Below, one piece after another: positions 4,554 to 61,140 of a DNA stretch of 64,000 bases. The stretch comes from Clostridiales bacterium. GTDB taxonomy: Bacteria; Bacillota; Clostridia; Caldicoprobacterales; UBA3941. Each line of letters begins with the position of its first letter. Position 1 is the first letter of the stretch. Under the pieces are notes generated by a model. The model saw only the letters and a list, made by a program, of their open reading frames with translations, was not told where the DNA came from and ran no database searches. The DNA is taken from contig JAAYTG010000080.1 in the NCBI GenBank assembly GCA_012518075.1, positions 23,048-87,047 of the forward strand. The letters run 5' to 3'. The translations under genes were made by a program, and so were the position numbers.

Positions 4554-4579
4554 TAAGATATACAATGCACTGAGAAGCC

Positions 4580-4612
4580 CCTTAAAATCTCTTATGAGGT
4601 TTTAAGGATTTT
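4580..4612 (+). terminator. Rho-independent terminator after the oxidoreductase gene
   Basis: 12-bp stem CCTTAAAATCTC / GAGGTTTTAAGG (one G-U), loop TTAT, followed by ATTTT. Confidence 0.6.
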
Positions 4613-4747
4613 CCCCTAATAGTTCATGGGGATATGGTTAGTGGAGCAGTATACCCTTGCTAGATACAATATTTGATTAGATCAATAATCAAACTATTAA
4701 GGATTAGAATAGATGAATACTAGGAGTATTTTAAGTGGGGGATTAAG

Positions 4748-6004: not shown

Positions 6005-6053
6005 TGAGCATCATCTGCTTTTAAACAAGAGAGGAAGAGCAGGAACCATAAAA

Positions 6054-6082
6054 TTGACATGGTTAGGCCTGTTTGATAAAAT
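6054..6082 (+). promoter_or_regulatory. Candidate sigma-A promoter for the dihydrolipoyl dehydrogenase gene
   Basis: TTGACA (6054-6059), 17-nt spacer, TGaTAAAAT extended -10 (TAAAAT at 6077-6082), about 110 nt upstream of the ATG. Confidence 0.5.
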
Positions 6083-6191
6083 ACATCTAATAAAAACTGG
6101 CATACCAACAAGAAACATACAGCTAAATCTAAAGGAACTGGCTATAATCTTGAGAATTTTAGTTTTGTTAGCTAAGTAGGAGGATTTTGTC

Positions 6192-7705: not shown

Positions 7706-8386
7706 TTAAAATGATTTATTGATGTCGGTAGCCAAAACATTCTTGTCTTCAAAGAGTAGTGGTAACTTGTATATTGCAAGATATAATACCAGAGACAGGA
7801 ATATAGCCCAGAGACCGTCTTTAATGGAATGTTGTTTGATAAAGACAGTAGACAAGCTGATTAGAACAACACTAATTAAGGACAGCCAATACCAAATTTG
7901 AGGTAGTTTTCTAAACTCTTTGCAGTTTGCTAGAGCAACATGGACTGCAATTGAATTAAGCACATGAATGCTAGGAGCAACATTGGTATTGGTATCAGTG
8001 CTATATATATGCTTAATCATTCTGGAGAAAATATCGTTTTCTACAATAACTGGTCTTAAGTTTTGAGCATTGGGAAATATCATATATATGGTATAGCAAA
8101 TGCACATTCCTCCAAAAATAAACAAGCATAGTCGATAATAATCCTTTTTGGATACAATACCTAAGTAAAGAAAAGCAATAGCCATATAGGCAAACCAAAA
8201 GAGATAGGGTATAACAAAAAACTTAATAAAAGGTATATAATCATCTAATGGTGAGTACATAATATACTTAGGACGTAGGGTTCTCTCACAGTAGTTGAAC
8301 CAAATCTGACATATCCCATAAAGCGAGAGCAAGGAAAAATGCCAATATTTTTGGCATAGGGCTAGAAGTTTTTCTTTTTTTGTCAT
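7706..8386 (-). CDS. PAP2-superfamily-like integral membrane protein
   Basis: 226 aa, about 6 TM helices. PSIHV and KQHSIKD resemble the PAP2 C2 (PSGH) and C3 (H-x3-D) motifs. Confidence 0.55.
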   Translation of the reverse strand: MTKKEKLLALCQKYWHFSLLSLYGICQIWFNYCERTLRPKYIMYSPLDDYIPFIKFFVIPYLFWFAYMAIAFLYLGIVSKKDYYRLCLFIFGGMCICYTIYMIFPNAQNLRPVIVENDIFSRMIKHIYSTDTNTNVAPSIHVLNSIAVHVALANCKEFRKLPQIWYWLSLISVVLISLSTVFIKQHSIKDGLWAIFLSLVLYLAIYKLPLLFEDKNVLATDINKSF

Positions 8387-9500: not shown

Positions 9501-10195
9501 AAATTTTTGCCATCAGCGATTTGCATCTTCCCGGCCAACAGGACAAGCCCATGGATGTATTTGGAGCCCATTGGAAAAATCATTGGGGAAAAATAAAAGA
9601 AAACTGGATAGAAGCCGTTTCGCCTCAAGATATAGTTTTGATACCAGGTGATATTAGTTGGGCTATGACCCTGGAAGAAGCTTTGGTGGATTTAAATGAT
9701 ATCGCTACTTTACCTGGTAATAAAATTATGATAAAGGGTAATCATGACTATTGGTGGTCATCTATTTCCCGCCTTAGAGATAGGTCCCATCACTCTATCT
9801 ATACTATACAAAACGATAGTATAAGTTTGGAGGATTTCCCTGGTTTGGTATTTTGTGGCACAAGGGGATGGACTGCTCCAGGAGCAAAGGACTTTACAGA
9901 GCATGATCAAAAAATATTTAATAGAGAAGTTAGCCGGCTTAAATTATCCTTAGATGCTGCCAAAGGTGCACCGAGTATTATAGTCTTACTACATTTTCCG
10001 CCCTTTGATGATAAGGGACAGGAAAGTGAAATCTGTCATTTGATTAAACAGTATCCGGTTAAACATGTTGTATTTGGACATCTTCACGGAGATAGTCTTA
10101 AAGGTGTTATAGAAGGCAAGATCAATGGTGTGACATATCATCTAGTATCTTGCGATTATTTGGATTTTATTCCAAAACTAATTGAGAAGTTGTAA
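9497..10195 (+). CDS. Metallophosphoesterase (calcineurin-like)
   Basis: Motifs ISDLHL, GDISW, GNHDYW, GHLHG. ATGA overlap with the upstream adk-like gene. Confidence 0.75.
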   Translation: MKIFAISDLHLPGQQDKPMDVFGAHWKNHWGKIKENWIEAVSPQDIVLIPGDISWAMTLEEALVDLNDIATLPGNKIMIKGNHDYWWSSISRLRDRSHHSIYTIQNDSISLEDFPGLVFCGTRGWTAPGAKDFTEHDQKIFNREVSRLKLSLDAAKGAPSIIVLLHFPPFDDKGQESEICHLIKQYPVKHVVFGHLHGDSLKGVIEGKINGVTYHLVSCDYLDFIPKLIEKL

Positions 10196-10877: not shown

Positions 10878-11810
10878 ATGAACTTTCACCACATTCCTGT
10901 ATTATTTAATGAGACTATAGAACTGCTTGATTGTAAGCCGGGAGACCTTGTTGTCGATGGAACTTTAGGTGGAGGAGGACATGCTGAGGCAATCCTAGAG
11001 AGAATACTTCCTGGAGGCACACTTATAGGAATAGATAGAGATCCAGCTGCATTGACAGCTGCAAGTAAGCGTTTAGACAGATACAAGGGTTCGCTGATAA
11101 CTGTACATGATAACTTTGCCAATCTAGATAGCATATTGGACAAGCTAGGTATTTCGGCTATTGACGGAATGATTATGGATCTTGGAGTCTCGTCGTATCA
11201 ATTGGATAAGGATAGTCGAGGCTTTTCCTACCGGAGCGATGCTCCATTGGACATGAGGATGAACCCTACTCAAACCTTAAATGCACATAAAGTTATCAAT
11301 GAATATGATGAGGGAAAACTAGCTCGTATTATATCAGAATTTGGAGAGGAAAGATGGGCTGCCAGAATAGCAAAATTTATAGTGCGCAACCGCCCAATAA
11401 ACACAACTTATGAGTTAACAGAGACAATAAAGGCTGCTATTCCGGCTGGAGCAAGGCGGCGAGGGCCTCACCCATCCAAAAGAACCTTTCAAGCCATTAG
11501 AATAGAGGTTAATAGGGAGCTTGAGATTTTGGAAGATGCTATAGAGACAGCAAGCAAGATGTTAAGACCAGGGGGAAGGCTTTGTATCATTACCTTTCAC
11601 TCTCTGGAAGATAGGATTGTAAAGAACACCTTCCGTAAGCTTCAAGATCCTTGCATATGTCCGCCGCAATCGCCTATATGTATATGTGGCAAAGAGGCAA
11701 TGGTAGAAATTATTAACCGAAAACCCATTACTCCTTCAGAGGATGAGGTTAAGGAGAATCCACGTTCGCGAAGTGCCAAGCTTAGAGCTTGTCAAAAACT
11801 GAAAGTGTGA
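10878..11810 (+). CDS. rsmH: 16S rRNA m4C1402 methyltransferase RsmH
   Basis: [21 protein letters not shown] and [10 protein letters not shown] motifs. Second gene of the dcw cluster. Confidence 0.9.
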
Positions 11811-38539: not shown

Positions 38540-41500
38540 TTATTCAACCGCTTTAAGTGCTTCCACCATATCGATATCTTGGAGCTTTCTATGGGTAATT
38601 AGCATAACTATAAGTGAAAAAGCTAGGGTCAGGGCAGTGGATAGAATATAGCTACTGAGCTTAACTGCAGGATCCATCATAATGTTGGCAGGAGGAAGAG
38701 CTGTAAGAACAAAGTCATGGAGCAGTAAACCAAAACCATAGCCAATGGAAATCCCTATTGCAGTCAACAGCATAGTTTCCCTATATACGTAAGCAGTTAC
38801 CTCTTGGGGATAAAAACCAAGAACCATTATTGTGGATAATTCCCTAACCCGTTCAGAAACATTAATATTGGTTAAGTTATAAAGGACCACCATGGCTAGC
38901 AAAGAAGAAGCTAGAATAATGACTAGGACCACAATATCCAAGGCTTTCATAAGCTCCCGAATTATATCGCTAGATACATTTTTATTAATGGCACTCAAAA
39001 CTACATCTTTGTTGAGCATATCCTGGGTAAATTGGGTGGTAGCTTCATTGCTTTTTTCATTGAGCAAAAGGTAATCACAGTTTTTAGCATAGGTTTTTTC
39101 AAAGATTTCTTCATAATAATCCTTGGTCATATACAAGTAATGGCCAGCGTAATTTTCAGCAATTCCAGAAATTTCAATTTGCCTAAACTTTCCATCATTA
39201 TCTTTGAATTTCAGCCTGTCGCTTATATCTAAGTCAAGAAGACTGGCCAGCTTTTCTGTAATAACAGCACCCTTATTAAGTTTAATTTCATCTTGACTTT
39301 CCCTTTCTATCAGGGGATTAATTTTTTGGAAACCCTTCTCGTCCTCAGGTACAACTATACTAAGGTCTTGATCTAGTTTATCCGGTATTTCTACTGTAGC
39401 CTGCTCCAAACGAGCCGGATAGACACTGGCAATACGCTTATCCTCTTTTAGCAGATTATTATAATCAAACAAATCCTCTGCTGGGGCACTGTCATTGATA
39501 ATCAAAATAGTATCATATTTGAAAAGTTTATCATACTGTTTACCGAGTATCCCGGTAACTGAATCCCTAATAGCAAAGCCCATAAAAATCAGAGCAGTGC
39601 AGCCTGTAACACCAAGGATGGTCATTATCATCCTTTTCTTGTAACGGAAGATATTGCGGGCAGTAACCTTATAATTAAAGGATAAACGTCGCCACAGCAG
39701 GGTAAATCGCTCTAATAAAACACGATTCCCATTCTTTGGAGCCTTCGGTCTAAGGAGAGTAGCAACATTATTATCCAAAGAAGATCTAGTTGTTACAAGG
39801 GTGACAAATCCCGTACAGAAAAGGCTAATAATCACAGCTATTAGATTGTATATAGGTGGAAGCAGCGGGAGAGGCTCTTTAAAGAGAAAATTCGAGGAGT
39901 ATGCAAAGAATACTATAGGCATAAGAAGTTTGTGAGCTCCAATAATGCCTATAATGCTTCCTATCAGGCTTGCGCAGCTTCCATATATCAAATACTTCTT
40001 AATAACAGCCCAGTTGGAATAGCCTAGTGCCTTCAAAGTTCCAATCTGCAACCGCTGCTCATCAACCATGCGGGTCATGGTGGTTAAGGAAACCAAAAGA
40101 GCTATAAGGAAGAAAAAGACTGGGAAGATATGGGATAGTAAATCCATGCTCTCAGAGTTCTCTATATATTGTGAAAAACCCATATCCTTATACGGATGAC
40201 TGACACTATAAGCTGGGATTTTTAGTCCTTCCAGGGCCTTTCGTGCCTTGCTTATATCTTTTTTTGCCTGCTCAATATCTTCTCGAGCTTCAGGCAACTT
40301 CTCCAGGTATTCATTCAATCCCTTTTCATACTCTTCCTCAGCTTCTAGAAGCTTGCTATAGGCATCCTCTAGTTCATTTTCACCTTTTAAGCGCTCTGAC
40401 GCAAGTTTGTTTTTAGCCTTCTTTAATTCGGACATTCCATTTTCATATTCTACTTGGCCTGCAGCCAGATCTTCCTGCGCCTTTTTTAGCTGTGTTTCTC
40501 CTTGGTTGACTTGCCTGCGACCACTTTCCAGCTCAGCAAGTCCTTCTTCATATTCCATTTTTTTTAATTCAAGGTTGGCAATTTCCTGATCTAGCTTTTT
40601 TTGGCTAATATCTAGCAGGGTGGAGGCTTCATCCAGTTGGGATATACCGGCCAACACTTTCTCCTTTTGGCTTAAGAGGTCTTTGTGTTGACCTTCAAGC
40701 TCAGCTTTATTTTTAAGAGACTCTTCTTTACTTTCCAAAAGCTTTCTTTGCTCTCCTGCCAGCTCATCTTTTGCTCCTATAATATTGTTTTTCTCTAATT
40801 GAAGACCAGTGAGGGAGGCTTCAATTTGGCTAATTTCTATAATTATATTATCCAATTCAGCCTTCAGTTCGGGTCTGGGATTATCTTTGAGTTTTAATTC
40901 CAATTGAGTTTTCCTATCCATTAAAACCGTTAGTTGCTCATTTGAGCTAAGAATTAACGTGTCTACATCATTTAGTTGACTTTCCAAAAACGATGTTTGG
41001 GCTGACAGCTGGGATAAGGCCTCATAAATGGAATTCAGACCTTTATTTACATCAGTTAAGGAATTCTCTAGCATTTTTATACCTTGGTTAAGGGCAGCTA
41101 GACTTTCATCAGGTTTTAGTAAATCCATCTTCTCTTTTAGCTCAGATCTAGCTTGATTAATTTCTTTTTGTACAGATTCCAGGCGAGCTTTACCCTGGTC
41201 AAGTTGTAGCTTAGCCTTAGCTAGTTGGGCCTCCCCTTGAGACAATTCAGCTTTGGATTGGCTTAATTCTTGCTCACCCTCTACAATCTCTGTATATCCA
41301 TAATCCAGTTTATCCTTGGTCTTTTGCAATTCTGTCTCTGCTTTTGAAATTTGTAACTGGGCATCCTCAATCTCTTTGTCAAAGGTAGCTTTACCTTCCT
41401 CATAATCAGCCCAGGCCTTGTCTAGTTTATCCCTTGCATCATCCAGTTCCACTTGGGCATTGAGAAGTTCCTGCGTAGCTTCGGATATTTCCTCTTCAGC

Positions 41501-42286
41501 AGAGGAAATATCTCTATTCCCTTCTTGAAGGTATTTATTTAGTCTTGCTTCTGGACGGGAGGCAAGGAGTTCCTCAACCTCCTTAACATGTAAATTCATC
41601 ATTTGCCTATATTGGGATGAATACTTACTTTCCTTTTGTACATCATCAAAAGTGAGTCTGGCTAGACTATAGTTTTCCATATTAAAATCATCTTCAAGGA
41701 TTACACCAAAAAAGTCCACAACTCCAGTACCTATGGGGGAGCTTCCTTTTTCGTAAGGTGTAAGGTATTCTGGAGAATTTATAAAGCCAACTATAACAAA
41801 ATTATAATCTTTCAAATTGTAATTGTCTTCATCTTTTTCAGGAAGAAATGAGATCTGATCCCCAACTCTGTAGCCTTCCTCTGCCATAAGCTCATCTAAA
41901 ACAATTTCTCCCCGCTTATCAGGCAGTCTGCCTTCTATAAGCTCATAACCTGGTAGTTGGCCAAGAGACTCAATGCGAACTACCATATATGAATCATCTA
42001 TCATCAAATCAGCACGGTAAGCGTAATCCAGTATTTCTACACCAGAAATAGAGGCAAAGATTTCTTGGTCTTCCTTATCCAGACCAAAAGGAGAGGAAAC
42101 TGTCATATCTCCTAATCTATAAGTATTCGTATAGGTGAGAATGGTGTTTCGCATGGTGGGTCCCGTTACACTAAGGCCTACAAAAACAAATGAACCTAGA
42201 GCGATCATCATCATTATTGAAAGAAATCTAGTAATTGAAACTGTGAACTCTCTATAAATATCTTTATTTAAAGCTCTTATTCTCAT
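38540..42286 (-). CDS. Fused double FtsX/MacB-type ABC permease (8 TM) with ~460-aa coiled-coil insert in the first extracytoplasmic domain
   Basis: 1248 aa. Order is TM1, ectodomain with heptad-rich E/K/Q/L region (about aa 225-688), 3 TM, TM5, second ectodomain, 3 TM. Directly downstream of an ABC ATPase. Confidence 0.8.
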   Translation of the reverse strand: MRIRALNKDIYREFTVSITRFLSIMMMIALGSFVFVGLSVTGPTMRNTILTYTNTYRLGDMTVSSPFGLDKEDQEIFASISGVEILDYAYRADLMIDDSYMVVRIESLGQLPGYELIEGRLPDKRGEIVLDELMAEEGYRVGDQISFLPEKDEDNYNLKDYNFVIVGFINSPEYLTPYEKGSSPIGTGVVDFFGVILEDDFNMENYSLARLTFDDVQKESKYSSQYRQMMNLHVKEVEELLASRPEARLNKYLQEGNRDISSAEEEISEATQELLNAQVELDDARDKLDKAWADYEEGKATFDKEIEDAQLQISKAETELQKTKDKLDYGYTEIVEGEQELSQSKAELSQGEAQLAKAKLQLDQGKARLESVQKEINQARSELKEKMDLLKPDESLAALNQGIKMLENSLTDVNKGLNSIYEALSQLSAQTSFLESQLNDVDTLILSSNEQLTVLMDRKTQLELKLKDNPRPELKAELDNIIIEISQIEASLTGLQLEKNNIIGAKDELAGEQRKLLESKEESLKNKAELEGQHKDLLSQKEKVLAGISQLDEASTLLDISQKKLDQEIANLELKKMEYEEGLAELESGRRQVNQGETQLKKAQEDLAAGQVEYENGMSELKKAKNKLASERLKGENELEDAYSKLLEAEEEYEKGLNEYLEKLPEAREDIEQAKKDISKARKALEGLKIPAYSVSHPYKDMGFSQYIENSESMDLLSHIFPVFFFLIALLVSLTTMTRMVDEQRLQIGTLKALGYSNWAVIKKYLIYGSCASLIGSIIGIIGAHKLLMPIVFFAYSSNFLFKEPLPLLPPIYNLIAVIISLFCTGFVTLVTTRSSLDNNVATLLRPKAPKNGNRVLLERFTLLWRRLSFNYKVTARNIFRYKKRMIMTILGVTGCTALIFMGFAIRDSVTGILGKQYDKLFKYDTILIINDSAPAEDLFDYNNLLKEDKRIASVYPARLEQATVEIPDKLDQDLSIVVPEDEKGFQKINPLIERESQDEIKLNKGAVITEKLASLLDLDISDRLKFKDNDGKFRQIEISGIAENYAGHYLYMTKDYYEEIFEKTYAKNCDYLLLNEKSNEATTQFTQDMLNKDVVLSAINKNVSSDIIRELMKALDIVVLVIILASSLLAMVVLYNLTNINVSERVRELSTIMVLGFYPQEVTAYVYRETMLLTAIGISIGYGFGLLLHDFVLTALPPANIMMDPAVKLSSYILSTALTLAFSLIVMLITHRKLQDIDMVEALKAVE

Positions 42287-42292
42287 AAAAAC

Positions 42293-43015
42293 CTACCATT
42301 CTATATCATCAATTGAAGCAGGATGCTTGTTTAGTGTTATTCTTCGTACCTTAGCATCATTAATTTCGATTACACGGTCGGCAATAGGTGTAATCGCCTG
42401 GTTATGGGTTATTACAATAACAGTTGTTCCAGTGTCCCTGCAGGTATTCTGTAGAAGTTCCAGAATTGCTTTACCGGTTCTATAATCTAGGGCACCTGTA
42501 GGCTCGTCAGCTAAAAGTATTTTTGGGCTCTTTGCCAGTGCCCGGGCAACTGCTACTCGTTGTTGCTCTCCACCAGAAAGTTGGGCAGGAAAATTGTTTA
42601 ATCGATGACCAAGGCCAACACTTTCTAAAACTTCATTAGCATCCTTGGCCTTTGGTACAATTTGGGATGATAGCTCCACATTTTCCAAGGCCGTCAAATT
42701 TGGCAATAAGTTATAGAACTGAAAAACAAATCCAACATCCAATCTTCGATACTTTATGAGCTCTTTACTAGTAAGCTTGGCTATATCTTTTCCATCTACA
42801 ATTACCTTTCCTTCATCACAGGTATCCATACCTCCTAGAATATTAAGTATGGTTGATTTGCCAGCACCTGAAGGGCCGACTATAACTACAAATTCACTCT
42901 TTTGAATCTCAAAACTTATTCCATTATTAGCTACAATAACTGTGTTGCCCATTCTATATCGTTTATAGCATTCCACTACTTTTATAAAGGCCATAATATT
43001 AACATCAACTCCCAT
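42293..43015 (-). CDS. ABC transporter ATP-binding protein (MacB/LolD-type)
   Basis: Walker [10 protein letters not shown], signature [15 protein letters not shown], Walker [12 protein letters not shown]. The true start may be the ATG at 42994 ([13 protein letters not shown]). Confidence 0.9.
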
Positions 43016-43039
43016 AGGTCCATTCCACGCATAAGTTTT

Positions 43040-43477
43040 TTATAGTTGATTCTCCTTATTCTTCATTACTTCCATAGAAAGTTCTATTAGTCGATTCAAC
43101 TCGATAACATTTTCTTCGCCTAGGCCTTCTACCAGGACATCAAAATAGTTATTTATTCTCTCTTGTTTTTCCTTGATAAAAGATTCCCCATTAGATGTTA
43201 GTTTTACACACATTCGACGTCGATCTTTTTCAGAGATGTTCATTTTAACATACCCTTTTTTCCTTAGAGAGGCTAGAGCATGGGTGATTCGGGGTCTTGA
43301 CACATGAAGTTTATCACTCAATTCTGATGGATTGACATCTCCATGGGGATTCTTTATAAGGTATAAGAGTATTTGTATTTTATCTTGCAAAAAAACAGCA
43401 AGTACACTAAAAACCTTCATCTCATACATGTCAGACAGAGACTTTGTCAAAGTATTTCTTAACTTAATCTTATCCAT
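43040..43477 (-). CDS. MarR family transcriptional regulator
   Basis: Winged-helix core LSDKLHVSRPRITHALASLRKKGYV. Start moved to ATG 43477, 6 nt after GGAGG; the track TTG at 43507 lies in the leader. Confidence 0.8.
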   Translation of the reverse strand: MDKIKLRNTLTKSLSDMYEMKVFSVLAVFLQDKIQILLYLIKNPHGDVNPSELSDKLHVSRPRITHALASLRKKGYVKMNISEKDRRRMCVKLTSNGESFIKEKQERINNYFDVLVEGLGEENVIELNRLIELSMEVMKNKENQL

Positions 43478-43500
43478 TATTACCTCCGGGAAAAATAGTT

Positions 43501-43555
43501 TAAACAATTAATTATTAACATTGTTTATTATATTCGCTTTTGGGTATTTTTGCAA
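43501..43555 (-). promoter_or_regulatory. Promoter of the MarR-ABC operon with inverted repeat over the transcription-start region
   Basis: Minus strand: TTGCAA (43555-43550), 17-nt spacer, TATAAT (43532-43527), then IR TAAACAAT-N11-ATTGTTTA (43527-43501). Confidence 0.6.
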
Positions 43556-53866: not shown

Positions 53867-54556
53867 TTGAATGAAATCCTAATACAAAATGTTACAAAGA
53901 TTTATCCAATGGGGGAGAGCAAGGTATATGCTCTCAGAGATATCAGCCTTAGTATAAAGCAAGGTGAATTTGTCTGCTTATTGGGGCCATCAGGTTCGGG
54001 GAAATCCACATTATTATATGTAATTGGGGGACTTGAGGAAGCCAATGAAGGAAGGGTTGATATATTTGGGGAGAGAATAACAGATTATGATCAAAATCAA
54101 CTAAGTCTTTTTAGACGAAACTACATAGGCTTTGTCTTCCAATCTTTCAATCTTTTTACCCGTCATACAGCCTCTGAAAATGTACAGATTCCTCTTTTCT
54201 TTGCCAGGCGTGATAAAAGGACTAGGAAAGAACAAGCAGATGGTTTATTAGAGCTAGTTGGACTCAAGGATCGTATTTTGCACAAGCCAGGTGAGCTAAG
54301 TGGAGGCCAGCAACAGAGAGTCAGTATAGCTAGGGCATTAGTATCAGATCCGCCCTTAATCTTAGCAGATGAGCCAACGGGCAATTTGGACAGTAAGACA
54401 GGGAAAGAGATAATTGAATTGTTTGTAAATCTAAATAAAGATAATGGCAAAACCATTATTATTGCAACCCATGATAAGGCTGTTGCTCAATTTGCCCATA
54501 AAATAGTTTATCTAAGAGATGGCTGCATTCAAAATGTAGAGGAAAATAAGATATAA
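53867..54556 (+). CDS. ABC transporter ATP-binding protein (MacB/YknY-type)
   Basis: TTG start. GPSGSGKST, LSGGQQQRVSIARAL, ILADEPTGNLD. Confidence 0.9.
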   Translation: MNEILIQNVTKIYPMGESKVYALRDISLSIKQGEFVCLLGPSGSGKSTLLYVIGGLEEANEGRVDIFGERITDYDQNQLSLFRRNYIGFVFQSFNLFTRHTASENVQIPLFFARRDKRTRKEQADGLLELVGLKDRILHKPGELSGGQQQRVSIARALVSDPPLILADEPTGNLDSKTGKEIIELFVNLNKDNGKTIIIATHDKAVAQFAHKIVYLRDGCIQNVEENKI

Positions 54557-54568
54557 GGAGGTAGTAAC

Positions 54569-55432
54569 TTGAAGAGATCTTTTGCCATATTGCTTACAAC
54601 TATAACTATATTGCTCTTTCCAATGCTTGCTATGCAAATCCACGCATCGGTCAATCGTCCTGTCGTGGTTATTCAGTCTATAGAAACGGACCCATCTCCC
54701 GTGACTCCTGGGAATGAATTTAAGCTCAAGATAAATCTTGAGAATGAAGGGAACCAATCGGCTCGATGGGTGACTTTATCCCTGACTTCTATTGAAGGCA
54801 GGGAGGGCCTGGGTTCATTTTCGGTTTTAAACAATGATAACACTATTCATTTGGGAAGGATAGATAAGGATGAGGAGGCACAGGGTGTTTTTTCTATGGT
54901 GAATGCAGGAGCTATAGAGCCTGGCATATACAATCTTAATTTTCTACTTAAATATACCAACCATAATGGAATTGAATATGAAAGCAACCATGTTACAGGT
55001 ATTATTATAAGAGAAGAAAATCTCCTATCACTCTTTAATATCAATATACCTAGTGAAGCTGAGCTTGATGATGAAATCTATATTGAAGGTGAGTTTGCAA
55101 ACCTGGGCAAATATGATATAGAGAGTGTAATGATAAAAATTCAGGGGGATATTGACATATCACCTTCTGAATATTTTGTGGGAACGATGGCATCTGGTGA
55201 TGTGGATATGTTTAGTTCTAATGCGGTGGTGAGTAAATCAGGGAATATAGATATTAAAATAGAAGCTTCATACACCGATTCCATGAACCAAAGAACAGTC
55301 ACATCCGTTGATAAGAAAATACAGGTATCTGAGCCTAAGGAAGATCTATCTCAAGAGCAAATTCCAGAAGAAGATGAAGGTTTCTTTACTTCCATAATAA
55401 GTTTTATTAAGAGACTGTTTGGGTTAGGGTGA
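54569..55432 (+). CDS. Secreted two-domain beta-rich protein (COG1361/CARDB-like) with C-terminal amphipathic helix
   Basis: TTG start after AAGGAGG. Signal/TM FAILLTTITILLFPMLAMQIHA, two internally similar beta-rich halves, tail GFFTSIISFIKRLFGLG. Family call is tentative. Confidence 0.5.
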   Translation: MKRSFAILLTTITILLFPMLAMQIHASVNRPVVVIQSIETDPSPVTPGNEFKLKINLENEGNQSARWVTLSLTSIEGREGLGSFSVLNNDNTIHLGRIDKDEEAQGVFSMVNAGAIEPGIYNLNFLLKYTNHNGIEYESNHVTGIIIREENLLSLFNINIPSEAELDDEIYIEGEFANLGKYDIESVMIKIQGDIDISPSEYFVGTMASGDVDMFSSNAVVSKSGNIDIKIEASYTDSMNQRTVTSVDKKIQVSEPKEDLSQEQIPEEDEGFFTSIISFIKRLFGLG

Positions 55433-55436
55433 GGAA

Positions 55437-56702
55437 ATGAAGTTTGCGTTGGAGTTGTTTTTATTTACCTGGAGAAACCTGTGGAGGACTAAACTTCGTA
55501 CTATTTTTACTATTGCCGGTGTTTTGATTGGGAGTGGAGCCATAATGACCATGGTGTCATTGGGGTCGGGTTTGCAGAGTAGTATTACCGGAGCTTTTGC
55601 TGAAGTAGCTGATTTGCAGGTCTTGGAGGTAATGCCTGGTTTTGATATTGATGAAAATAGTATCAGTTTCACCTTTAATACGGATGAGGCAGACTACCCT
55701 TTAGACCAGAAAGCCATAGATGCTATAAATAAACTGGAAGGCGTAGAAGGGGTAACCCCTGTTTTGAATATTTATGGTGGATATATAAGAAGCAGGGGGG
55801 AGAATCATGATATTCAGTTGATAGGTATGGATTTTTCTACTCTCCCAACATTTGGATTTGCTTTAGAGGATAGAAATGAGATTTTAAGAAAGCCAAGAGG
55901 TGTCCTAATTGGGAGTAAGGTGGGTGAGATTATCGGGGATTCTACAGAGTCAATAGGAAGAGGGAATATACAATATAATCTATCTAAATTTGATGACCAG
56001 GGTATAGAGACCAGCAAAAGATATAGGTTTGTATCCATGGGGATTTTAGAAGAGAGAAGTAGCATGGAGGATTACTCAATAATTATTCCTCTTGAGACGG
56101 CACGGGATATGCTTAAATGGTTAGGTCAGGATAGAAATTTTGAAAAAGAAGGATATGATAATCTCAAAGTAAAAGTAGTATCCCCTGAAGAAGTAGATAG
56201 GGTAACTAATGCAATACAAGATATGGGTTTTTTGTTATTCTCCCTAAAGCAAATATTAGAAGGAGTAAATGTAGTATTTCTTATAGTAAAAGTTATTCTG
56301 GGCTCAATTGGGGCCATTGCTTTGGTAGTGGCAGGTCTTGGTATAGTAAACACCATGATAATGTCAATTTATGAGAGAACAAAAGAGATCGGTATCATGA
56401 AGGTAGTGGGTGCTTCCCTAGGAGATATAAGAAATATGTTTATTCTTGAAGCTGGAATTATAGGGCTTTTAGGAGGCATAGGAGGGGTCATTTCAGGATG
56501 GCTATTAGGACGTATTATTGATTTTGGTGCCAACCTATATATTACTTCCATGGGGGGAGAAGCCATGACATTGGTAGATACACCACCAGGGCTGGTAATA
56601 TTTACTTTGATTTTTTCAATAGGGATAGGGGTGCTTTCAGGATTATATCCAGCATTAAAGGCCATGAAACTAAGCCCTTTATCCGCTATAAGGCAGGAAT
56701 AG
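55437..56702 (+). CDS. ABC transporter permease, FtsX/MacB type (4 TM)
   Basis: TM1, about 230-aa ectodomain, then 3 TM, with the ERTKEIGIMKVVGA FtsX signature region. Confidence 0.85.
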   Translation: MKFALELFLFTWRNLWRTKLRTIFTIAGVLIGSGAIMTMVSLGSGLQSSITGAFAEVADLQVLEVMPGFDIDENSISFTFNTDEADYPLDQKAIDAINKLEGVEGVTPVLNIYGGYIRSRGENHDIQLIGMDFSTLPTFGFALEDRNEILRKPRGVLIGSKVGEIIGDSTESIGRGNIQYNLSKFDDQGIETSKRYRFVSMGILEERSSMEDYSIIIPLETARDMLKWLGQDRNFEKEGYDNLKVKVVSPEEVDRVTNAIQDMGFLLFSLKQILEGVNVVFLIVKVILGSIGAIALVVAGLGIVNTMIMSIYERTKEIGIMKVVGASLGDIRNMFILEAGIIGLLGGIGGVISGWLLGRIIDFGANLYITSMGGEAMTLVDTPPGLVIFTLIFSIGIGVLSGLYPALKAMKLSPLSAIRQE

Positions 56703-56787
56703 GTCCACACAAGATATATTCCTATAGGCATCGTTGAATTCCCACAATTGGTTTTTTATAAAAGAGCAAAGGAAGAGGGGGAAAGAT

Positions 56788-57516
56788 ATGAATGAAAAAA
56801 AAGGATTAGGATATGTTTTAAAGAACATTTTTTTCAAGCCGGCTTTAGCCTTTGACAGTTTTAAGGTAGGCTCTGCTATTGTTTTTGCCCTTGTACTAAT
56901 TTTTAGTGCCAACATCTTCAATGGCATAATACAAGTGGATACGGTTAAGGAATTGGATTTGACTGAATTTGAATTAACGGATGAAATGATAGAACAATAC
57001 AGGGATATGGGCTATTCAGAGGAAGAAATTAAGGAGATAGAAAAAACCTTTGACTCACAAGATTTTCAAGACACTATGGGTGTGGTAGGTAAATTTGCAG
57101 GTGTTTTTTCCTTTATTGGAGGGGTTATTGCTGGTATAGGTGTGTGCATAGGCTGGCTTATCAAAGGAGGAATTATTACTTTAGTCTTTAGTTTCATGGG
57201 GACCAAAGCAAAATTCGGCGAGACCATGGCTATAATTGGTCTGGCATGGATTCCTTTCTTTATTAGAGAAATTCTTCGAGGTATAATGACCTTAGCTACA
57301 GGGGAGGCAGCCGGGGCGGCCTCTAGCATGGTGAATAATTTGGACATATTTGTCCTTTGGAATGTTATATTATTAATCATTGGCTTTTCTGTAAATCTAA
57401 AGATATCCAAGAAAAGAACTGGTGCTGTAGTAATTGGCTATTGGGCCTTCACCATGTTATTCTATTTTGGTATAGATCAATTAGGGAAATTATTAGTAGG
57501 GGCCATAGGAGGATAA
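56788..57516 (+). CDS. Yip1-domain-like membrane protein (YknW-like)
   Basis: About 5 TM helices, with an acidic extracytoplasmic loop after TM1. Start moved to ATG 56788 after GAAGAGGGGG. Confidence 0.55.
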   Translation: MNEKKGLGYVLKNIFFKPALAFDSFKVGSAIVFALVLIFSANIFNGIIQVDTVKELDLTEFELTDEMIEQYRDMGYSEEEIKEIEKTFDSQDFQDTMGVVGKFAGVFSFIGGVIAGIGVCIGWLIKGGIITLVFSFMGTKAKFGETMAIIGLAWIPFFIREILRGIMTLATGEAAGAASSMVNNLDIFVLWNVILLIIGFSVNLKISKKRTGAVVIGYWAFTMLFYFGIDQLGKLLVGAIGG

Positions 57517-57542
57517 ATTGAATCAAGAAGCATTCTATATAG

Positions 57543-57585
57543 AAGCACTAGTAAGGCTTGCAGGATGAGTTTACTGGTGCTTTTC
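57543..57585 (+). terminator. Rho-independent terminator after the Yip1-like gene
   Basis: AAGCACTAGTAA ... TTACTGGTGCTT (one G-U), followed by TTTT. Confidence 0.6.
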
Positions 57586-57620
57586 ACAAATTTATATAGT
57601 TATGAAAGTGAGGAATTTAT

Positions 57621-58040
57621 ATGATGTGGAAAGATAAGTACAAAATCGGCGTTGAACTAATTGATCAGCAACATAAGGAGCTGTTTAGGCGGGTCTCTGA
57701 TTTTACTGAGACTATCCGAAATGAACAAAATTGGGAAGATAAGCTGGATAAAGTAAAGGAGACAATGGTTTTTATGCAAGAATATGTAATCGCCCACTTC
57801 GATGCTGAAGAAGCTTATCAAGAAGAAATAAACTATCCCGATATTGAAAACCATAAGGAGGCCCATGCCAAGTTTAAAGAGGGCATTAATGATTATGTTA
57901 AAATCTTTGAGGAGGAAGGTTTTAATGAAGCTAAGATACAAGAATTTGGCGGTAGACTTATGACATGGCTTATTATGCATGTTGGAAGAACAGATCAAAA
58001 GATTGGAGAATATGTCAGAAGTAAAGGAGGACAAGCCTAA
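57621..58040 (+). CDS. Bacteriohemerythrin (hemerythrin-like di-iron protein)
   Basis: MWKDKYKIGVELIDQQHKELF. Ligand pattern H...HxxxE...HxxxH...HxxxxD is present. 139 aa. Confidence 0.85.
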   Translation: MMWKDKYKIGVELIDQQHKELFRRVSDFTETIRNEQNWEDKLDKVKETMVFMQEYVIAHFDAEEAYQEEINYPDIENHKEAHAKFKEGINDYVKIFEEEGFNEAKIQEFGGRLMTWLIMHVGRTDQKIGEYVRSKGGQA

Positions 58041-58510
58041 TGAGAGCAGAATATGTAAACTCCTTCTACAAGGCAATAAAGGAAGTATTTGAATTAATGA
58101 TTGATATAGTTCCCCAGAGAAGTAATATGAGAATGGTAGACAGTCTGGTAAGCAATAAGGATGCCAATGTTATACTAGAAGTAAAAGGAAATCTACAAGG
58201 GACAATTCTCTTTAGCTTCCCACAAGATATGATTTTGAAAATGATGAAGATTATGTCCGGGATGGATGTGGATAAAATAGACAGTTTTGCTTCTTCGGCC
58301 CTAGGAGAAGTAGCCAATATTATAGGAGGAAATGCATTAACTAATTTAGCAGAACAAAACTATATCTGTGATATTGCACCACCACAGATATTTGTGGGAG
58401 AGCATAAAGCATTGTCCATAGTAGATGAAAAGGCTTTACAATTGACCTTAACGACTCCAATTGGAGAATTCGACATAACTATTTCTCTCAATGAAAATCA
58501 ATCAGAATGA
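58040..58510 (+). CDS. cheX: CheX/CheC-family CheY-P phosphatase-like protein
   Basis: 156 aa. Single S-x3-E-x2-N site (SALGEVAN, E90/N93), followed about 21 residues later by PP. The ATG shares one nt with the hemerythrin stop (TAATG). Confidence 0.7.
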   Translation: MRAEYVNSFYKAIKEVFELMIDIVPQRSNMRMVDSLVSNKDANVILEVKGNLQGTILFSFPQDMILKMMKIMSGMDVDKIDSFASSALGEVANIIGGNALTNLAEQNYICDIAPPQIFVGEHKALSIVDEKALQLTLTTPIGEFDITISLNENQSE

Positions 58511-58566: not shown

Positions 58567-58634
58567 AAGCAGATTAGAAATGTATGAGATAAGCTTGTTG
58601 GTTTTATGGATACTTTCTAATCTGCTTTTTATTT
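58567..58634 (+). terminator. Long-stem terminator-like hairpin after cheX
   Basis: AAGCAGATTAGAAAtGTAT ... ATACTTTCTAATCTGCTT (18 bp, one bulge), 24-nt loop, then TTTTTATTT. Confidence 0.55.
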
Positions 58635-58878
58635 GCAGATAGATCAAGAACTTGCCTTTCCAACTAACTCATAAGGATTAATATATGTAAGGCTGATTGG
58701 AAAAGAAAAAATGGGGAATAATGTATAGGTAGTAAAAATAACAGAAGATTAGTCAAGAATGCTACTCTCATATAAGTCAGGGGGAAAAACCAGAAAGGAA
58801 AAACTAGATAGATCCGCAGCTGGATTGATTATATGGATTCTAAGAAATAAACAAACTTATTGTAACTGGAGGCATAAG

Positions 58879-61140
58879 TTGAAAAAAACAGGCTTATATT
58901 TCATTTTAATAGCTATCTTGTCTATATTAATTACTACCAGTCCTGCCTTGGCCCAAAGTAATAATATGGATGATAAAGGTAAGGTAATTTTGCTGGTTAT
59001 AGATCGTGTGAGTTGGAATGAGATTGATGAAGCCCATACTCCCAACCTAGATAAGTTGATAGATATGGGAGCAATAGGGCTTATGACAACCAATACGGGA
59101 AGCAGCCTCTCTCAAAACAATGCCTATTTAACTATAGGTGCCGGGGCTAGGGCTGTAGGAGTGTCTGGATCCCAAGAGGCTTTATCATATAGTCACAAAT
59201 ACCGGGGTGACAGGATAGAAAACGTAATGTATCAGATTACCGGATTCAGAATGGCTGAGGGGGCAGTAGGTAATCCATCTATAGCCAAATTGCATAGAGA
59301 GAATGAAAAGAAAGCCTATAATGTAGGAATAGGGTCTTTAGGAACTGCCCTAAGGGAAGCAGGTTTAAAGGCTGCGGTTTTAGGTAATTGTGATAATTAT
59401 AGACGATTGGAGAAAGAGGGCGGCGGTAAAAACTTTCTGGTATCAATGATGATGGATGATAGAGGAATAATACCCTTAGGCGACATCAGCCAATCACTTA
59501 TTATTGATGATCCCAACTGGCCTATGGGGATTAGGACCGACTATGACAAAATGCTGGAGGCCTTTAAGGAAATGACAGAACAAGCCCACGTTATTGCAGT
59601 ACAGTTGGGGGATACCTCTAGGGCAGAAGACTTCCGGCACCAGTGTATGGACTCACGGATTGAGCTTCATAAACGAAGGGCCTTGGAAGAAGGAGATAGA
59701 TTTTTAGGCAAAGTCATGGATTATTTTGATCCTCATTGTGATTATATGATGGTGCTTACTCCTGTGGGAGCTAGCAAAGAAATTGGCAATAACAATAGAT
59801 TGACCCCTATAGTCATAGCAGGTAAGGGCATTAACAAAGGCTGGCTAACATCGGGCTCTACTCATAGGGAAGGAGTGGTAACCAATCTGGACATCGGTAC
59901 CAGCATACTTAATTTTTTTGGACTAAGTCCCTTGCTCGGTCAGGGTGGAGCACCCATATATTCCACAAATAAGGTCAAGGAAACGTCAGCAATAGTTGAA
60001 TTTAACGCAAAATTAACTACTATATACAATCAAAGACCCTTTTTGTTAAGAGCTTATGTATACATATTGATACCTATCCTGGCACTTGCTGCCTTGTGCC
60101 TATTATCTAAAAGAGAATATTTAAGAGTCATTAAACCAATGCTCATATTTATCATGGTAGTTCCCCTGGTATATCTCTTCTTACCTTTATTACAACAAGC
60201 CCAGCTTCATAAGACCGCCATTATAGCAATGTCTATGTGCATATTAGTAACTGCACTGGTTTGTCGAATCTTCCGCTCCACCATTGATAAAATTATGGCA
60301 ATATCTAGCCTAACTGCTATGGCTTTAATACTAGATCAGTGGATGGGTATGAGGCTTATTCAATCATCACCCTTAGGCTATGATGTAATTGCAGCTGCTC
60401 GCTTTTATGGTATGGGGAATGAATACATGGGGGTACTGGTTAGCTCCATATGTTGTACAGGTACGGCTCTTATTGAAAGATTTAGGGGGCAGGACAGACT
60501 TGCCAAGATAGCAGCATTGTTTGTAGGACTTATAGCTATCTACACTATGGCCTCACCAGCCTTAAGTGCCAATGTAGGTGGAACAATAGCCATTTTTATT
60601 GCTATTTCCATTAGTATTTTAATGGTTAAAGATAAAAAGATTCGGATTCCAAATCTAGTTGCCATGGGAGTTATGATGATGCTCATATTGGCGGGGACAT
60701 TCTTCTTGGATTCTTTAAGGGTAGTGGACAGTCAAAGCCATATGGGACAAACTGTAAATGCCATAAAGCAAAATGGTTTGCTGGAGCTTTTTTATATATT
60801 CTATAGAAAGATTTATATGAATATCCAACTTATTCGAAGCACTATATGGACAAGGGTGTTTTTGACTTCTTTGGGAGTAGTAGTGCTGCTTCTCTTTCGT
60901 CCCGTGGGAATCTTTAGGGATGTATATAGAAAGCATGAACTACTTATAAAGGGCTTGACAGGAGCATCCATAGGTGCCATTGCAGCTCTTGTTTTCAATG
61001 ACTCTGGAATTGTAGCTGCTGCAACGGCTATGGTATTTATCGCTCCCCCCTTCATAATGCTGATAGTGGATGAGATAGAAGAAAAAGTCATGGATGGAGC
61101 CTTAGAAGATGAAATACAATTCGAAACTCCGAGTAGCTGA
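58879..61140 (+). CDS. Large membrane protein: N-terminal alkaline-phosphatase-superfamily-like ectodomain plus about 10 TM helices
   Basis: TTG start 6 nt after GGAGG, giving the signal peptide MKKTGLYFILIAILSILITTSPALA. VILLVIDRVSWNEIDEAHTPNLDKLIDMGAIGLMTTNTG resembles the NPP/phosphodiesterase metal-site region. Function unknown. Confidence 0.6.
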   Translation: MKKTGLYFILIAILSILITTSPALAQSNNMDDKGKVILLVIDRVSWNEIDEAHTPNLDKLIDMGAIGLMTTNTGSSLSQNNAYLTIGAGARAVGVSGSQEALSYSHKYRGDRIENVMYQITGFRMAEGAVGNPSIAKLHRENEKKAYNVGIGSLGTALREAGLKAAVLGNCDNYRRLEKEGGGKNFLVSMMMDDRGIIPLGDISQSLIIDDPNWPMGIRTDYDKMLEAFKEMTEQAHVIAVQLGDTSRAEDFRHQCMDSRIELHKRRALEEGDRFLGKVMDYFDPHCDYMMVLTPVGASKEIGNNNRLTPIVIAGKGINKGWLTSGSTHREGVVTNLDIGTSILNFFGLSPLLGQGGAPIYSTNKVKETSAIVEFNAKLTTIYNQRPFLLRAYVYILIPILALAALCLLSKREYLRVIKPMLIFIMVVPLVYLFLPLLQQAQLHKTAIIAMSMCILVTALVCRIFRSTIDKIMAISSLTAMALILDQWMGMRLIQSSPLGYDVIAAARFYGMGNEYMGVLVSSICCTGTALIERFRGQDRLAKIAALFVGLIAIYTMASPALSANVGGTIAIFIAISISILMVKDKKIRIPNLVAMGVMMMLILAGTFFLDSLRVVDSQSHMGQTVNAIKQNGLLELFYIFYRKIYMNIQLIRSTIWTRVFLTSLGVVVLLLFRPVGIFRDVYRKHELLIKGLTGASIGAIAALVFNDSGIVAAATAMVFIAPPFIMLIVDEIEEKVMDGALEDEIQFETPSS

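Follow-up and report, generated by a model that had tools for sequence, protein, structure and literature searches.

Two adjoining genes in a 64,000-nucleotide stretch of a Clostridiales genome (contig JAAYTG010000080.1; the whole stretch is called the window below) raise the question why a protein of the hemerythrin type should be encoded together with a CheX-type protein. In nearly all accounts of bacterial chemotaxis, sensory input reaches the pathway via receptors that act on the CheA kinase. CheY-P phosphatases are regarded as constitutive enzymes, or as enzymes adjusted by their localisation or by CheD. A CheY-P phosphatase with a sensor of its own would give chemotaxis signals another point of entry. 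An earlier note, made from the letters of the window, had read the pair as a device for redox or O2 control of response-regulator dephosphorylation.

Structure of the two-gene locus

The upstream gene (57621-58040, plus strand) encodes a bacteriohemerythrin of 139 amino acids, the proposed sensor subunit. The downstream gene (58040-58510, plus strand) encodes a predicted phosphatase of CheX type (CheC/CheX/FliY family, 156 amino acids), the proposed output subunit. The hemerythrin stop codon (58038-58040) and the cheX start codon (58040-58042) overlap by one base in the translational coupling junction TAATG (58038-58042, plus strand; GCC TAA TG). The reading frames given in the earlier note were correct. 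The cheX Shine-Dalgarno sequence GGAGG (58026-58030, plus strand) lies within the hemerythrin codons K135-G136-G137. The hemerythrin has its own Shine-Dalgarno sequence, GAGG (57610-57613, plus strand), 7 nt 5′ of the ATG, and the context of this element, GAAAG-N-GAGGGAT, was found again in orthologous loci. A candidate sigma-A-type promoter (TTTACT, 17 nt, TATATA; 57570-57598, plus strand) can be read from the sequence; it has 8 of the 12 consensus matches, which is below the threshold of the promoter scanner, and clearer extended -10 boxes stand upstream of several orthologous loci. The antisense ORFs 57657-58076 and 58066-58317 were rejected as shadows of the coding strand.

The earlier note had placed the pair between two terminators. 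Downstream this proved right: the two-gene operon ends in a good intrinsic terminator (58567-58635, plus strand), whose hairpin (58567-58627) has an outer stem of 14 perfectly paired bp; UUUUUAUUU comes directly after it. The folding energy is -25.6 kcal/mol (z -4.6), and none of 200 shuffled sequences folded as well. The upstream hairpin (57541-57584, plus strand; -19.2 kcal/mol, z -3.6), located between a Yip1/YknW-like gene and the hemerythrin-cheX module, is weaker than claimed, with a weak U-tract of just four U after the G-C part of the stem. It is a plausible, perhaps probable, terminator of the upstream ABC-transporter operon. A simple consensus terminator scan called neither hairpin.

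Among the ORFs of at least 150 amino acids, scanned across the 64-kb window except for 7706-8386, no member of the che, mcp or fla families was found, which bears out the absence of such genes in the vicinity that had been remarked on earlier. The description of the host as a spore-former likewise agrees with the window, which contains SpoIIGA, sigE, sigG, SpoIIP and SpoIVA.

The product of the upstream gene matches the profiles Pfam PF01814 (E=2e-11, 44.8 bits; cutoff 25.3), NCBIfam bact_hemeryth NF033749 (92.4 bits; cutoff 84) and TIGR02481 (102.8 bits; cutoff 51.75). The ligand pattern H...HxxxE...HxxxH...HxxxxD is complete, as the earlier note had stated, and consists of H18, H59/E63, H78/H82 and H120/D125. 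All seven diiron ligands are invariant in 75/75 orthologues; G136 and G137, which overlap the cheX Shine-Dalgarno sequence, are each conserved in 54/75. The closest relative of known structure is the hemerythrin domain of DcrH (DcrH-Hr; PDB 2awc/2avk), as judged by sequence (E=1.4e-11 over residues 11-136 of the window protein). It is also the closest relative by fold of a fusion homologue, whose AF2 model, the first of two, superposes on 2avk with a TM score of 0.82. Four long helices, as in a four-helix bundle, are seen in the AF2 models of the fusion homologues, which are not models of the window protein itself. By profile, ligands and fold the protein falls in the bacteriohemerythrin / O2-binding hemerythrin family, and its iron and O2 reactivity is predicted.

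The downstream protein matches Pfam PF13690 (E=1e-15, 57.8 bits; cutoff 27) and PF04509 (E=7e-11, 42.4 bits; cutoff 22). A phmmer search of the PDB retrieved 3h4y, 1squ, 1xko, 3hm4 and 3hzh_B (E 1e-11 to 3e-9), and the C-domain of the fusion AF2 model superposed on CheX structures with TM scores of 0.66-0.80. As criterion for assignment we used the motif (D/S)-x3-E-x2-N followed by a conserved proline about 21-22 residues on, CheX having one such site and CheC two. A single full motif is present, S86-x3-E90-x2-N93, with P114/P115 after it, in agreement with the one active-site motif described before. The motif, S86-A-L-G-E90-V-A-N93 (codons at 58295-58318, plus strand), aligns to SAIGELGN of Thermotoga maritima CheX. 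S86, E90, N93, P114 and P115 are invariant in 75/75 orthologues, and a partial motif, E4-x2-N7, is conserved on the N-terminal helix. The score against NF041094 ('CheY-P phosphatase CheX', a Thermotogales equivalog) is 87.6 bits, far under the cutoff of 280, and we therefore regard the protein as a member of a distinct CheX subfamily. To our knowledge, all characterised CheC/CheX/FliY enzymes are CheY-P phosphatases. The window protein appears to be a single-site member of the CheC/CheX family, and CheY-P phosphatase activity is predicted from its sequence.

Conservation of the pair and natural fusions

CheX orthologues with 43-69% identity provided 78 assessable genome loci, and in 77 of these a hemerythrin orthologue stands directly upstream of cheX on the same strand. 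The upstream hemerythrin is intact in 75 loci, interrupted in two (MAGs) and a remnant in one. The lineages with the adjacent pair include Clostridia, Tissierellia, Acetivibrio, Heliorestis, Carboxydothermus, Halanaerobiales, Limnochordia and Thermotogae-labelled bins; adjacency is also found in more distant Lachnospiraceae-type pairs and in A. thermocellus. Stop and start codons overlap in 62/72 junctions (37 at -1, 21 at -4 and 4 at -11), and the cheX Shine-Dalgarno sequence lies inside hemerythrin codons in nearly all loci. As an operon the pair is represented by 333 CheX and 288 hemerythrin clusters at 90% identity, to which fusions add at least 21 more. Because it recurs in 77/78 loci of other genomes, the arrangement is not due to chance. 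A lack of conserved adjacency, which the earlier note had named as grounds for refutation, is thus decisively contradicted: in essentially every genome with this CheX clade the two genes stand side by side in the same orientation, in most cases with an overlap. Cultured organisms with the module are Acetivibrio thermocellus (Cthe_2307/2308), Clostridium aceticum, C. formicaceticum, Tissierella and Haliovirga abyssi.

Natural fusions, which the earlier note had proposed to survey, do exist. Hemerythrin and CheX were contained in one polypeptide of 284-296 amino acids in 9/9 representatives tested. Although the mutual identity of these is just 31-36%, all nine kept every iron ligand, the S-x3-E-x2-N motif (with S86, E90 and N93) and the prolines equivalent to P114/P115. 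Fusions occur on many contigs and make up at least 21 clusters (90% identity); they come from Eubacteriales and Fusobacteriota, and the isolate Haliovirga abyssi has one. The split proteins align colinearly with the fused ones, and a linker of 5-10 residues is found exactly at the position where the split genes end and start. Translational coupling together with the fusions suggests a 1:1 stoichiometry of hemerythrin and CheX.

AF2 models were obtained for two fusions; they differ in how the domains are connected and do not establish an interface. In the model of P0270 (pTM 0.70) a continuous helix joins the domains, whereas in that of P0436 (pTM 0.54) the linker is broken (pLDDT <50). A rigid continuous helix from hemerythrin helix 4 to CheX helix 1 was therefore not retained as a structural feature.

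Genomic context and expression

Clustering of 836 flanking ORFs from 80 loci did not reveal a conserved third gene. The next-best neighbour cluster occurred in at most 16/80 loci, all from one Tissierella synteny block. In one Tissierellia synteny block (13-14/80 loci) an HD_5/HD-GYP-like gene directly precedes the module in the same orientation, and EAL and HDOD genes are found among the neighbours. Conserved linkage to che, fla or mcp genes was absent in the 80 loci, and none of these genes was found at three fusion loci; an MCP gene lies within 6 kb in 9/80 loci, approximately the chance level.

For the sigma-D promoter (TAAA-N15-CCGATAT) the upstream regions of 78 loci were searched. CCGATA was present in 0/78 and the relaxed pattern TAAA-N12-18-NCGATA in just four, and sigma-D/FliA control was rejected. 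PerR, Fur, Zur and Rex boxes appeared enriched relative to mononucleotide shuffles, but this enrichment was largely gone when real promoters served as control: PerR boxes at up to three mismatches occurred in 31% of loci versus 26% of control promoters. PerR/Fur-like boxes at up to two mismatches showed weak enrichment (8/78 loci versus 6/223 control promoters). An Rfam scan for riboswitches and leaders upstream of 52 loci gave one case alone, a c-di-GMP-I riboswitch. It precedes cheX in Natronincola at the place where the hemerythrin otherwise stands; this is an input swap of the kind typical for motility genes.

Expression data are available for A. thermocellus. Cthe_2308, the CheX orthologue, shows a roughly 8-fold higher level in planktonic (motile) cells than in biofilm cells and appears in the same list as the chemotaxis genes (PMC5327387, supplement). 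This planktonic level is the sole positive hint of membership in the flagellar/chemotaxis regulon, to which neither linkage nor a sigma-D promoter points. It is thus family membership, together with a single transcriptome, that connects the module with flagellar chemotaxis. Another C. thermocellum 'hemerythrin', Cthe_1509, which is 70-fold induced in planktonic cells, is a DUF438 protein and was rejected as an orthologue; the true orthologues of the pair are Cthe_2307 and Cthe_2308.

Proposed function of the module and alternatives

The adjacency, the fusions, the invariant residues and the likeness to DcrH support redox or O2 control of response-regulator dephosphorylation, in which the hemerythrin would bind CheX, respond to O2 and act through CheY-P as the substrate. 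The planktonic level of Cthe_2308 and the input swap in Natronincola also count in favour of this reading. We estimate at roughly 0.55 the probability that hemerythrin sensor and CheX phosphatase form a self-contained module which bypasses MCP-CheA and places the dephosphorylation of CheY-P under the control of O2 or redox state. With two translationally coupled cistrons and a terminator of its own, the operon would define one signalling module. Its sensor would be the DcrH-like diiron four-helix bundle, with an iron site that binds O2 or is oxidised by it, and its output the Glu/Asn helix of CheX, which would speed hydrolysis of the aspartyl phosphate on a CheY-type response regulator. The two proteins most likely form a complex; in other lineages they are fused. 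Whether the iron centre is in the deoxy, oxy or met form would then affect phosphatase activity or access to CheY-P. The O2 or redox state of the cytoplasm would thereby set the lifetime of CheY-P directly, without MCP-CheA input. CheY-P causes smooth swimming in B. subtilis. If the Bacillus/Firmicute motor polarity is assumed, an O2-activated phosphatase would lead to tumbling or reorientation and to escape from oxygen.

A bolder version of this proposal, which we put forward tentatively and would not expect to hold in full, sees the module as a widespread device by which strict anaerobes carry out aerotaxis or aerokinesis independently of MCP and CheA. O2 that enters the cytoplasm would be read by the diiron centre, this centre would directly switch the CheY-P phosphatase, the signal would enter at termination instead of kinase control, and re-reduction of the met form would provide the reset in place of methylation-based adaptation.

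The same hemerythrin and CheX-fold architecture might serve a receiver protein other than flagellar CheY, for example in c-di-GMP turnover, biofilm/planktonic switching, type IV pili or sporulation. We consider such a target unlikely. It would fit the lack of che/fla linkage at the loci examined, the absence of the sigma-D promoter (78 loci), the EAL and HDOD neighbours, the Natronincola riboswitch and the low NF041094 score of CheX. The fusions in Fusobacteriota, most of whose described members are non-motile, point in the same direction. So does the HD_5/HD-GYP-like gene directly upstream, but that linkage is confined to one clade, and every characterised CheC/CheX/FliY enzyme acts on CheY-P (PDB 3hzh). 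The invariant catalytic helix and the co-variation of the A. thermocellus orthologue with chemotaxis and flagellar genes also speak against a different receiver, and the chance-level frequency of MCP genes near the module was counted on this side as well.

Somewhat less probable again is a signal other than O2. Hemerythrin-like domains are known as sensors of iron, O2 and NO, and the diiron site could report iron availability, NO or the H2O2/redox poise to the phosphatase, in the manner of FBXL5-type or RIC/YtfE-type proteins. The weak excess of PerR/Fur-like boxes at up to two mismatches is consistent with this, but at up to three mismatches the frequency of PerR boxes equals that of the control. 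Moreover, the full canonical set of O2-binding ligands is invariant, DcrH-Hr as the nearest relative of known structure is an O2 sensor, and Cthe_2307, the hemerythrin orthologue, is classed among the O2-binding hemerythrins (PMC4919030). The same source proposes that single-domain clostridial hemerythrins protect against O2 damage, and a scavenging or protective hemerythrin could just share its operon with a constitutive auxiliary CheY-P phosphatase, without regulatory coupling. This we regard as very improbable: co-expression alone does not explain near-universal adjacency over distant lineages and in unrelated contexts, and it leaves unexplained the conserved stop/start overlap and especially the repeated single-polypeptide fusions that keep both active sites.

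The preferred reading, a hemerythrin sensor acting on a CheX phosphatase, would offer a simple account of fast O2 reactions in oxygen-sensitive Clostridia, Tissierellia and relatives. The pair also gives a functional context to the large group of clostridial 'single-domain hemerythrins', so far read as O2 scavengers. Since the module is small and present in cultured organisms, the hypothesis can be tested directly. In a literature search that combined hemerythrin with CheX, CheC or CheY-P phosphatase the pair did not turn up, and an earlier mention is possible; as a potential O2/redox route onto motility signalling the pairing is apparently undescribed.

Several known systems resemble the module in part. 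DcrH of the strict anaerobe Desulfovibrio vulgaris (2awc, 2avk) is an MCP with a C-terminal hemerythrin domain, a cytoplasmic diiron O2 sensor that feeds chemotaxis. There the sensor is fused to the MCP, influences the kinase activity of CheA from upstream and is combined with adaptation by methylation, whereas in the window it would be coupled to a phosphatase downstream of the kinase, and MCP, HAMP and transmembrane parts are lacking. In Bhr-DGC of Vibrio cholerae and in other hemerythrin-GGDEF, -MCP and -kinase fusions, an N-terminal bacteriohemerythrin governs the signalling enzyme at the C-terminus according to the redox or O2 state of its diiron centre. The output here differs, being a CheX phosphatase, and the pair mostly occurs as two separate proteins whose translation is coupled; a CheX output is not among the hemerythrin-output fusion architectures listed in PMC4919030, nor was it met with in the other papers searched.

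The CheX proteins of T. maritima (1xko, 1squ) and Borrelia burgdorferi (3hzh, with CheY3-BeF3) share with the window protein the length of about 150 amino acids, the fold and the single S/D-x3-E-x2-N helix. They differ in having no dedicated sensor partner, and are about 25% identical to it. CheC-CheD of T. maritima and B. subtilis (2f9z), in which a CheC-family phosphatase is modulated by a small partner encoded adjacent to it, is by analogy a precedent for partner-regulated CheY-P phosphatases. CheD, however, is a receptor deamidase that reports the receptor state, whereas the partner in the window is a predicted metalloprotein, a proposed gas/redox sensor, unrelated to CheD. A. thermocellus carries a canonical cheC-cheD pair in its che operon besides the hemerythrin-cheX module.

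Anatomy of the gene pair

The module consists of two genes on the forward strand. The first ORF (57621-58040, 139 aa) encodes a bacteriohemerythrin, which matched Pfam PF01814 (E=2e-11), NCBIfam bact_hemeryth (92.4 bits, cutoff 84) and TIGR02481 (102.8 bits), and in which every ligand of the set is present: H18, H59-x3-E63, H78-x3-H82 and H120-x4-D125. The second ORF (58040-58510, 156 aa) matched PF13690 (E=1e-15) and PF04509 (E=7e-11), which place it in the CheC/CheX/FliY phosphatase family as a CheX-type protein. One S86-x3-E90-x2-N93 motif is present, with P114-P115 after it, and in the HMMER alignment the protein's SALGEVAN segment matches SAIGELGN of the T. maritima CheX catalytic helix residue for residue. 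Against the curated Thermotogales CheX equivalog it scored 87.6 bits (cutoff 280). Judged from the profile scores, both halves are bona fide members of their own superfamilies, and this CheX falls outside the curated Thermotogales equivalog.

At the TAATG junction the hemerythrin stop codon (58038-58040) and the cheX ATG (58040-58042) have one base in common, and the cheX Shine-Dalgarno sequence GGAGG (58026-58030) lies inside the final hemerythrin codons. Read from the sequence, the junction shows translational coupling. The full His/Glu/Asp ligand set, the TAATG overlap and the single S-x3-E-x2-N motif were all found as the earlier note had claimed. Its claim that terminators bracket the pair held for one side: the downstream hairpin (58567-58627; dG -25.6, z -4.6), followed by UUUUUAUUU, is a convincing predicted terminator, whereas for the upstream hairpin (57541-57584; dG -19.2, z -3.6) a terminator role is no more than plausible, because most of its U-run is paired. 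A consensus terminator scan of the two hairpins called neither. The reported lack of che, mcp and fla genes near the pair was borne out, as no chemotaxis, receptor or flagellar gene was found among the scanned ORFs of at least 150 aa in the rest of the window.

Conservation and fusion of the pair

A profile of 24 CheX orthologues, scanned against one genome per GTDB species, yielded 80 loci with CheX 43-69% identical to the query. The upstream gene was checked by tblastn with the window hemerythrin; 78 loci were assessable (in L029 and L086 the contig ends at the gene). The earlier note had proposed surveying neighbourhoods for hemerythrin-cheX adjacency or fusions, and both were found. Of the 78 loci, 77 have a hemerythrin match directly before cheX in the same orientation; in two of these, both MAGs, the hemerythrin is interrupted (stop codon in L055, frameshift in L068). 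The 78th locus, L008 of Natronincola peptidivorans, keeps just the last ~44 hemerythrin codons. Among 72 junctions the commonest overlap is 1 nt (37 loci), ahead of 4 nt (21) and 11 nt (4), and nearly all those without overlap are 0-4 nt apart. The layout is the same in more distant pairs (a 4.7-Mb genome, a Lachnospiraceae MAG and A. thermocellus).

Among the taxon names that the records bear are Clostridiaceae, Acetivibrio, Herbivorax, Tissierellia, Heliorestis, Carboxydothermus, Desulfitispora, Fuchsiella, Halanaerobiales and Limnochordia. Atribacteria, Thermotogaceae or Varibaculum is the label of a few bins, which may reflect gene transfer or mis-binning. Such non-Firmicute records include L007 (Atribacteria MAG), L083 (Thermotogaceae MAG) and the protein representative P0026 (Defluviitoga), which could represent horizontal transfer or mis-binning, and L058 (Varibaculum timonense), whose flanks (SmpB, tmRNA) match those of the Firmicute locus L023 and therefore suggest a mislabelled or contaminated record.

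In the 75 intact pairs the iron ligands and S86, E90, N93, P114 and P115 are 100% conserved. The N-terminal helix of split-type CheX (window 58040-58060, residues 1-12) carries E4-x2-N7 (E in 68/75, N in 74/75), which is absent from the fusions described below (K and G in fusion P0270). Its pattern is similar to the E-x2-N core at active site 1 of CheC proteins with two sites, and it may act as a second catalytic site or contact the hemerythrin. Compared with its nearest relative, L007, the window hemerythrin is 88% identical but the CheX only 68%, and residue 47 is E where 70 of 75 orthologues have Gly. By this comparison the divergence of the window CheX relative to its partner is unusual.

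Clustering of all 836 flanking ORFs did not reveal a third conserved gene beyond the pair; the commonest other cluster occurs in at most 16 loci, within one Tissierella synteny block. Nine of the 80 loci have an MCP gene no more than 6 kb away, which is about the chance expectation in genomes with this many MCP copies. The flanking-gene families include HD_5, the commonest (14/145), HDOD (4), MCPsignal (4) and EAL (3).

When the CheX profile was run exhaustively against 1.84 billion representative proteins with HMMER, the matches listed included several of 284-296 aa, and in each of the nine tested a Hemerythrin domain forms the N-terminal part and a CheX domain the C-terminal part. They share 31-36% identity, keep the seven ligands and the S-x3-E-x2-N...P motif, and each occurs on several independent contigs. 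A follow-up search gave 21 fusion clusters at 90% identity, one of them in the complete genome of the isolate Haliovirga abyssi (Fusobacteriota). Split and fused forms are colinear, the end of the window hemerythrin and the start of its CheX corresponding to the 5-10-residue linker of the fusions. At three fusion loci no che or fla neighbours were found, and the genomic contexts are unrelated. These proteins are adjacent and translationally coupled elsewhere, and their repeated fusion is therefore strong genomic evidence for their acting together. Hemerythrin and CheX are most likely in physical contact, which in the split form would mean a complex.

The AF2 model of P0270 (pLDDT 91, pTM 0.70) resembles DcrH-Hr, the hemerythrin domain of the Desulfovibrio vulgaris chemoreceptor DcrH, in its N-domain (TM 0.82), and CheX structures, including B. 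burgdorferi CheX of the CheX-CheY3 complex 3hzh, in its C-domain (TM 0.66-0.80). In this model the final hemerythrin helix, with H120 and D125, runs unbroken into the first CheX helix, whereas in that of another fusion, P0436 (pTM 0.54), the linker is broken and of low confidence. The models disagree at the linker, and the modelled relative orientation of the domains is therefore not established.

Regulation and proposed function

The A. thermocellus pair is Cthe_2307/Cthe_2308, recognised by its MatE, nitrilase and Cu-amine-oxidase-like neighbours. Cthe_2307 was grouped with O2-binding hemerythrins in a survey in which the most frequent hemerythrin fusions were MCP, GGDEF and HAMP-MCP, and CheX was unmentioned (PMC4919030). 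Cthe_2308 has low expression, yet ~8-fold higher in planktonic than in biofilm cells, and most chemotaxis and flagellar genes are likewise higher in planktonic cells (PMC5327387). The organism also has a canonical cheA-cheW-cheC-cheD operon, so the CheX of Cthe_2308 would be an additional phosphatase. A second stand-alone 'CheC domain protein', Cthe_0126 (154 aa), is ~10-fold higher in planktonic cells (PMC5327387 supplement); it lies directly 3' of spoVAE, with a gap too small for a hemerythrin gene, and is a CheX-like paralogue in a sporulation context.

Upstream of the module loci no sigma-D promoter was found, and no PerR, Fur or Rex box was convincing against real-promoter controls. Among 52 loci scanned for riboswitches the only one was in L008 (NZ_FOHU01000007), where a c-di-GMP-I riboswitch (RF01051, 81.3 bits; 5690-5779, forward strand) with its own terminator hairpin replaces the 5' two-thirds of the hemerythrin gene directly before cheX. 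The hemerythrin remnant (5867-5998) is followed by an intact cheX (6001-6456), which overlaps its stop. From this arrangement the locus looks like a natural input swap from O2 sensor to c-di-GMP.

In the Tissierellia locus L019 an HD_5/HD gene (4491-5525; HD-GYP-like with weak HDOD, ~345 aa) lies 30-55 nt before the hemerythrin gene on the same strand, an arrangement shared by 12-13 other Tissierellia loci (e.g. L025, L028, L037, L047 and L064). Because of this short same-strand gap the two genes may be co-transcribed. Locus L030 has a c-di-GMP-II riboswitch 3 kb 3' of the module (9725-9808) and, beyond it, a second, distant hemerythrin-like ORF (11390-11767, 30% identity).

We propose, with a probability of roughly 0.55, that the pair is a self-contained sensor and effector module, in which a CheX acting on a CheY-type response regulator is under the control of a DcrH-like diiron O2/redox sensor. 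Hemerythrin with O2 bound, or in its oxidised form, would activate the CheX phosphatase, CheY-P would fall, and its lower level would lead to reorientation away from oxygen, given an assumed Firmicute motor polarity. The complete absence of che/fla linkage, the HD-GYP and c-di-GMP associations and the fusions in Fusobacteriota would also suit a non-chemotaxis receiver as the target, which we regard as unlikely though worth keeping in view. Iron, NO or peroxide as the signal is weakly supported and somewhat less probable again. That the hemerythrin is an O2 scavenger merely co-expressed with CheX is very improbable because the fusions speak against it.

By analogy, the proposed module would work like three known systems, yet is identical to none: it resembles DcrH in a hemerythrin that passes O2 information to chemotaxis, CheC-CheD in a phosphatase regulated by a partner, and Bhr-DGC in a fused enzyme under hemerythrin control. 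Unlike these, it places the sensor on signal termination, not on the kinase, and lacks receptor, HAMP and membrane parts. Full-text searches, whose coverage excludes the review of French et al. 2008, found no published description of a hemerythrin-CheX pair or fusion.

Other genes of the window

The window is part of a 157-kb contig of a biogas-fermenter 'Clostridiales bacterium'. Besides the pair it contains genes of lipid and sugar metabolism, two ABC/FtsX systems, a LytR-CpsA-Psr protein and a GT4 glycosyltransferase. Directly 5' of the module, and parted from it by the 57541-57584 hairpin, a four-gene operon with a YknWXYZ-like layout (53867-57516) encodes an ABC ATPase, a 287-aa secreted CARDB-like protein, a MacB/FtsX permease and a Yip1/YknW-like membrane protein. 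The ORF at 58759-61140 (called gene about 58879-61140) encodes a large polytopic membrane protein (753-793 aa); it has a weak, sub-cutoff N-terminal 'Metalloenzyme' (alkaline-phosphatase-superfamily) match and no NCBIfam match. Because its gene overlaps the start of the GT4 glycosyltransferase gene, it may belong to an undescribed family of enzymes for cell-envelope polymers. A divergent unit on the reverse strand (38540-43507) encodes a MarR-family regulator, an ABC ATPase and a 1247-aa FtsX-domain permease, which as read from its first ATG has no record in the gene-position collection. The dcw cell-division cluster (mraZ to ftsZ), followed by spoIIGA-sigE-sigG, nrdR, spoIIP, der/engA, plsY, gpsA and spoIVA, occupies 8800-38400, and these genes confirm the organism as an endospore-forming Firmicute.
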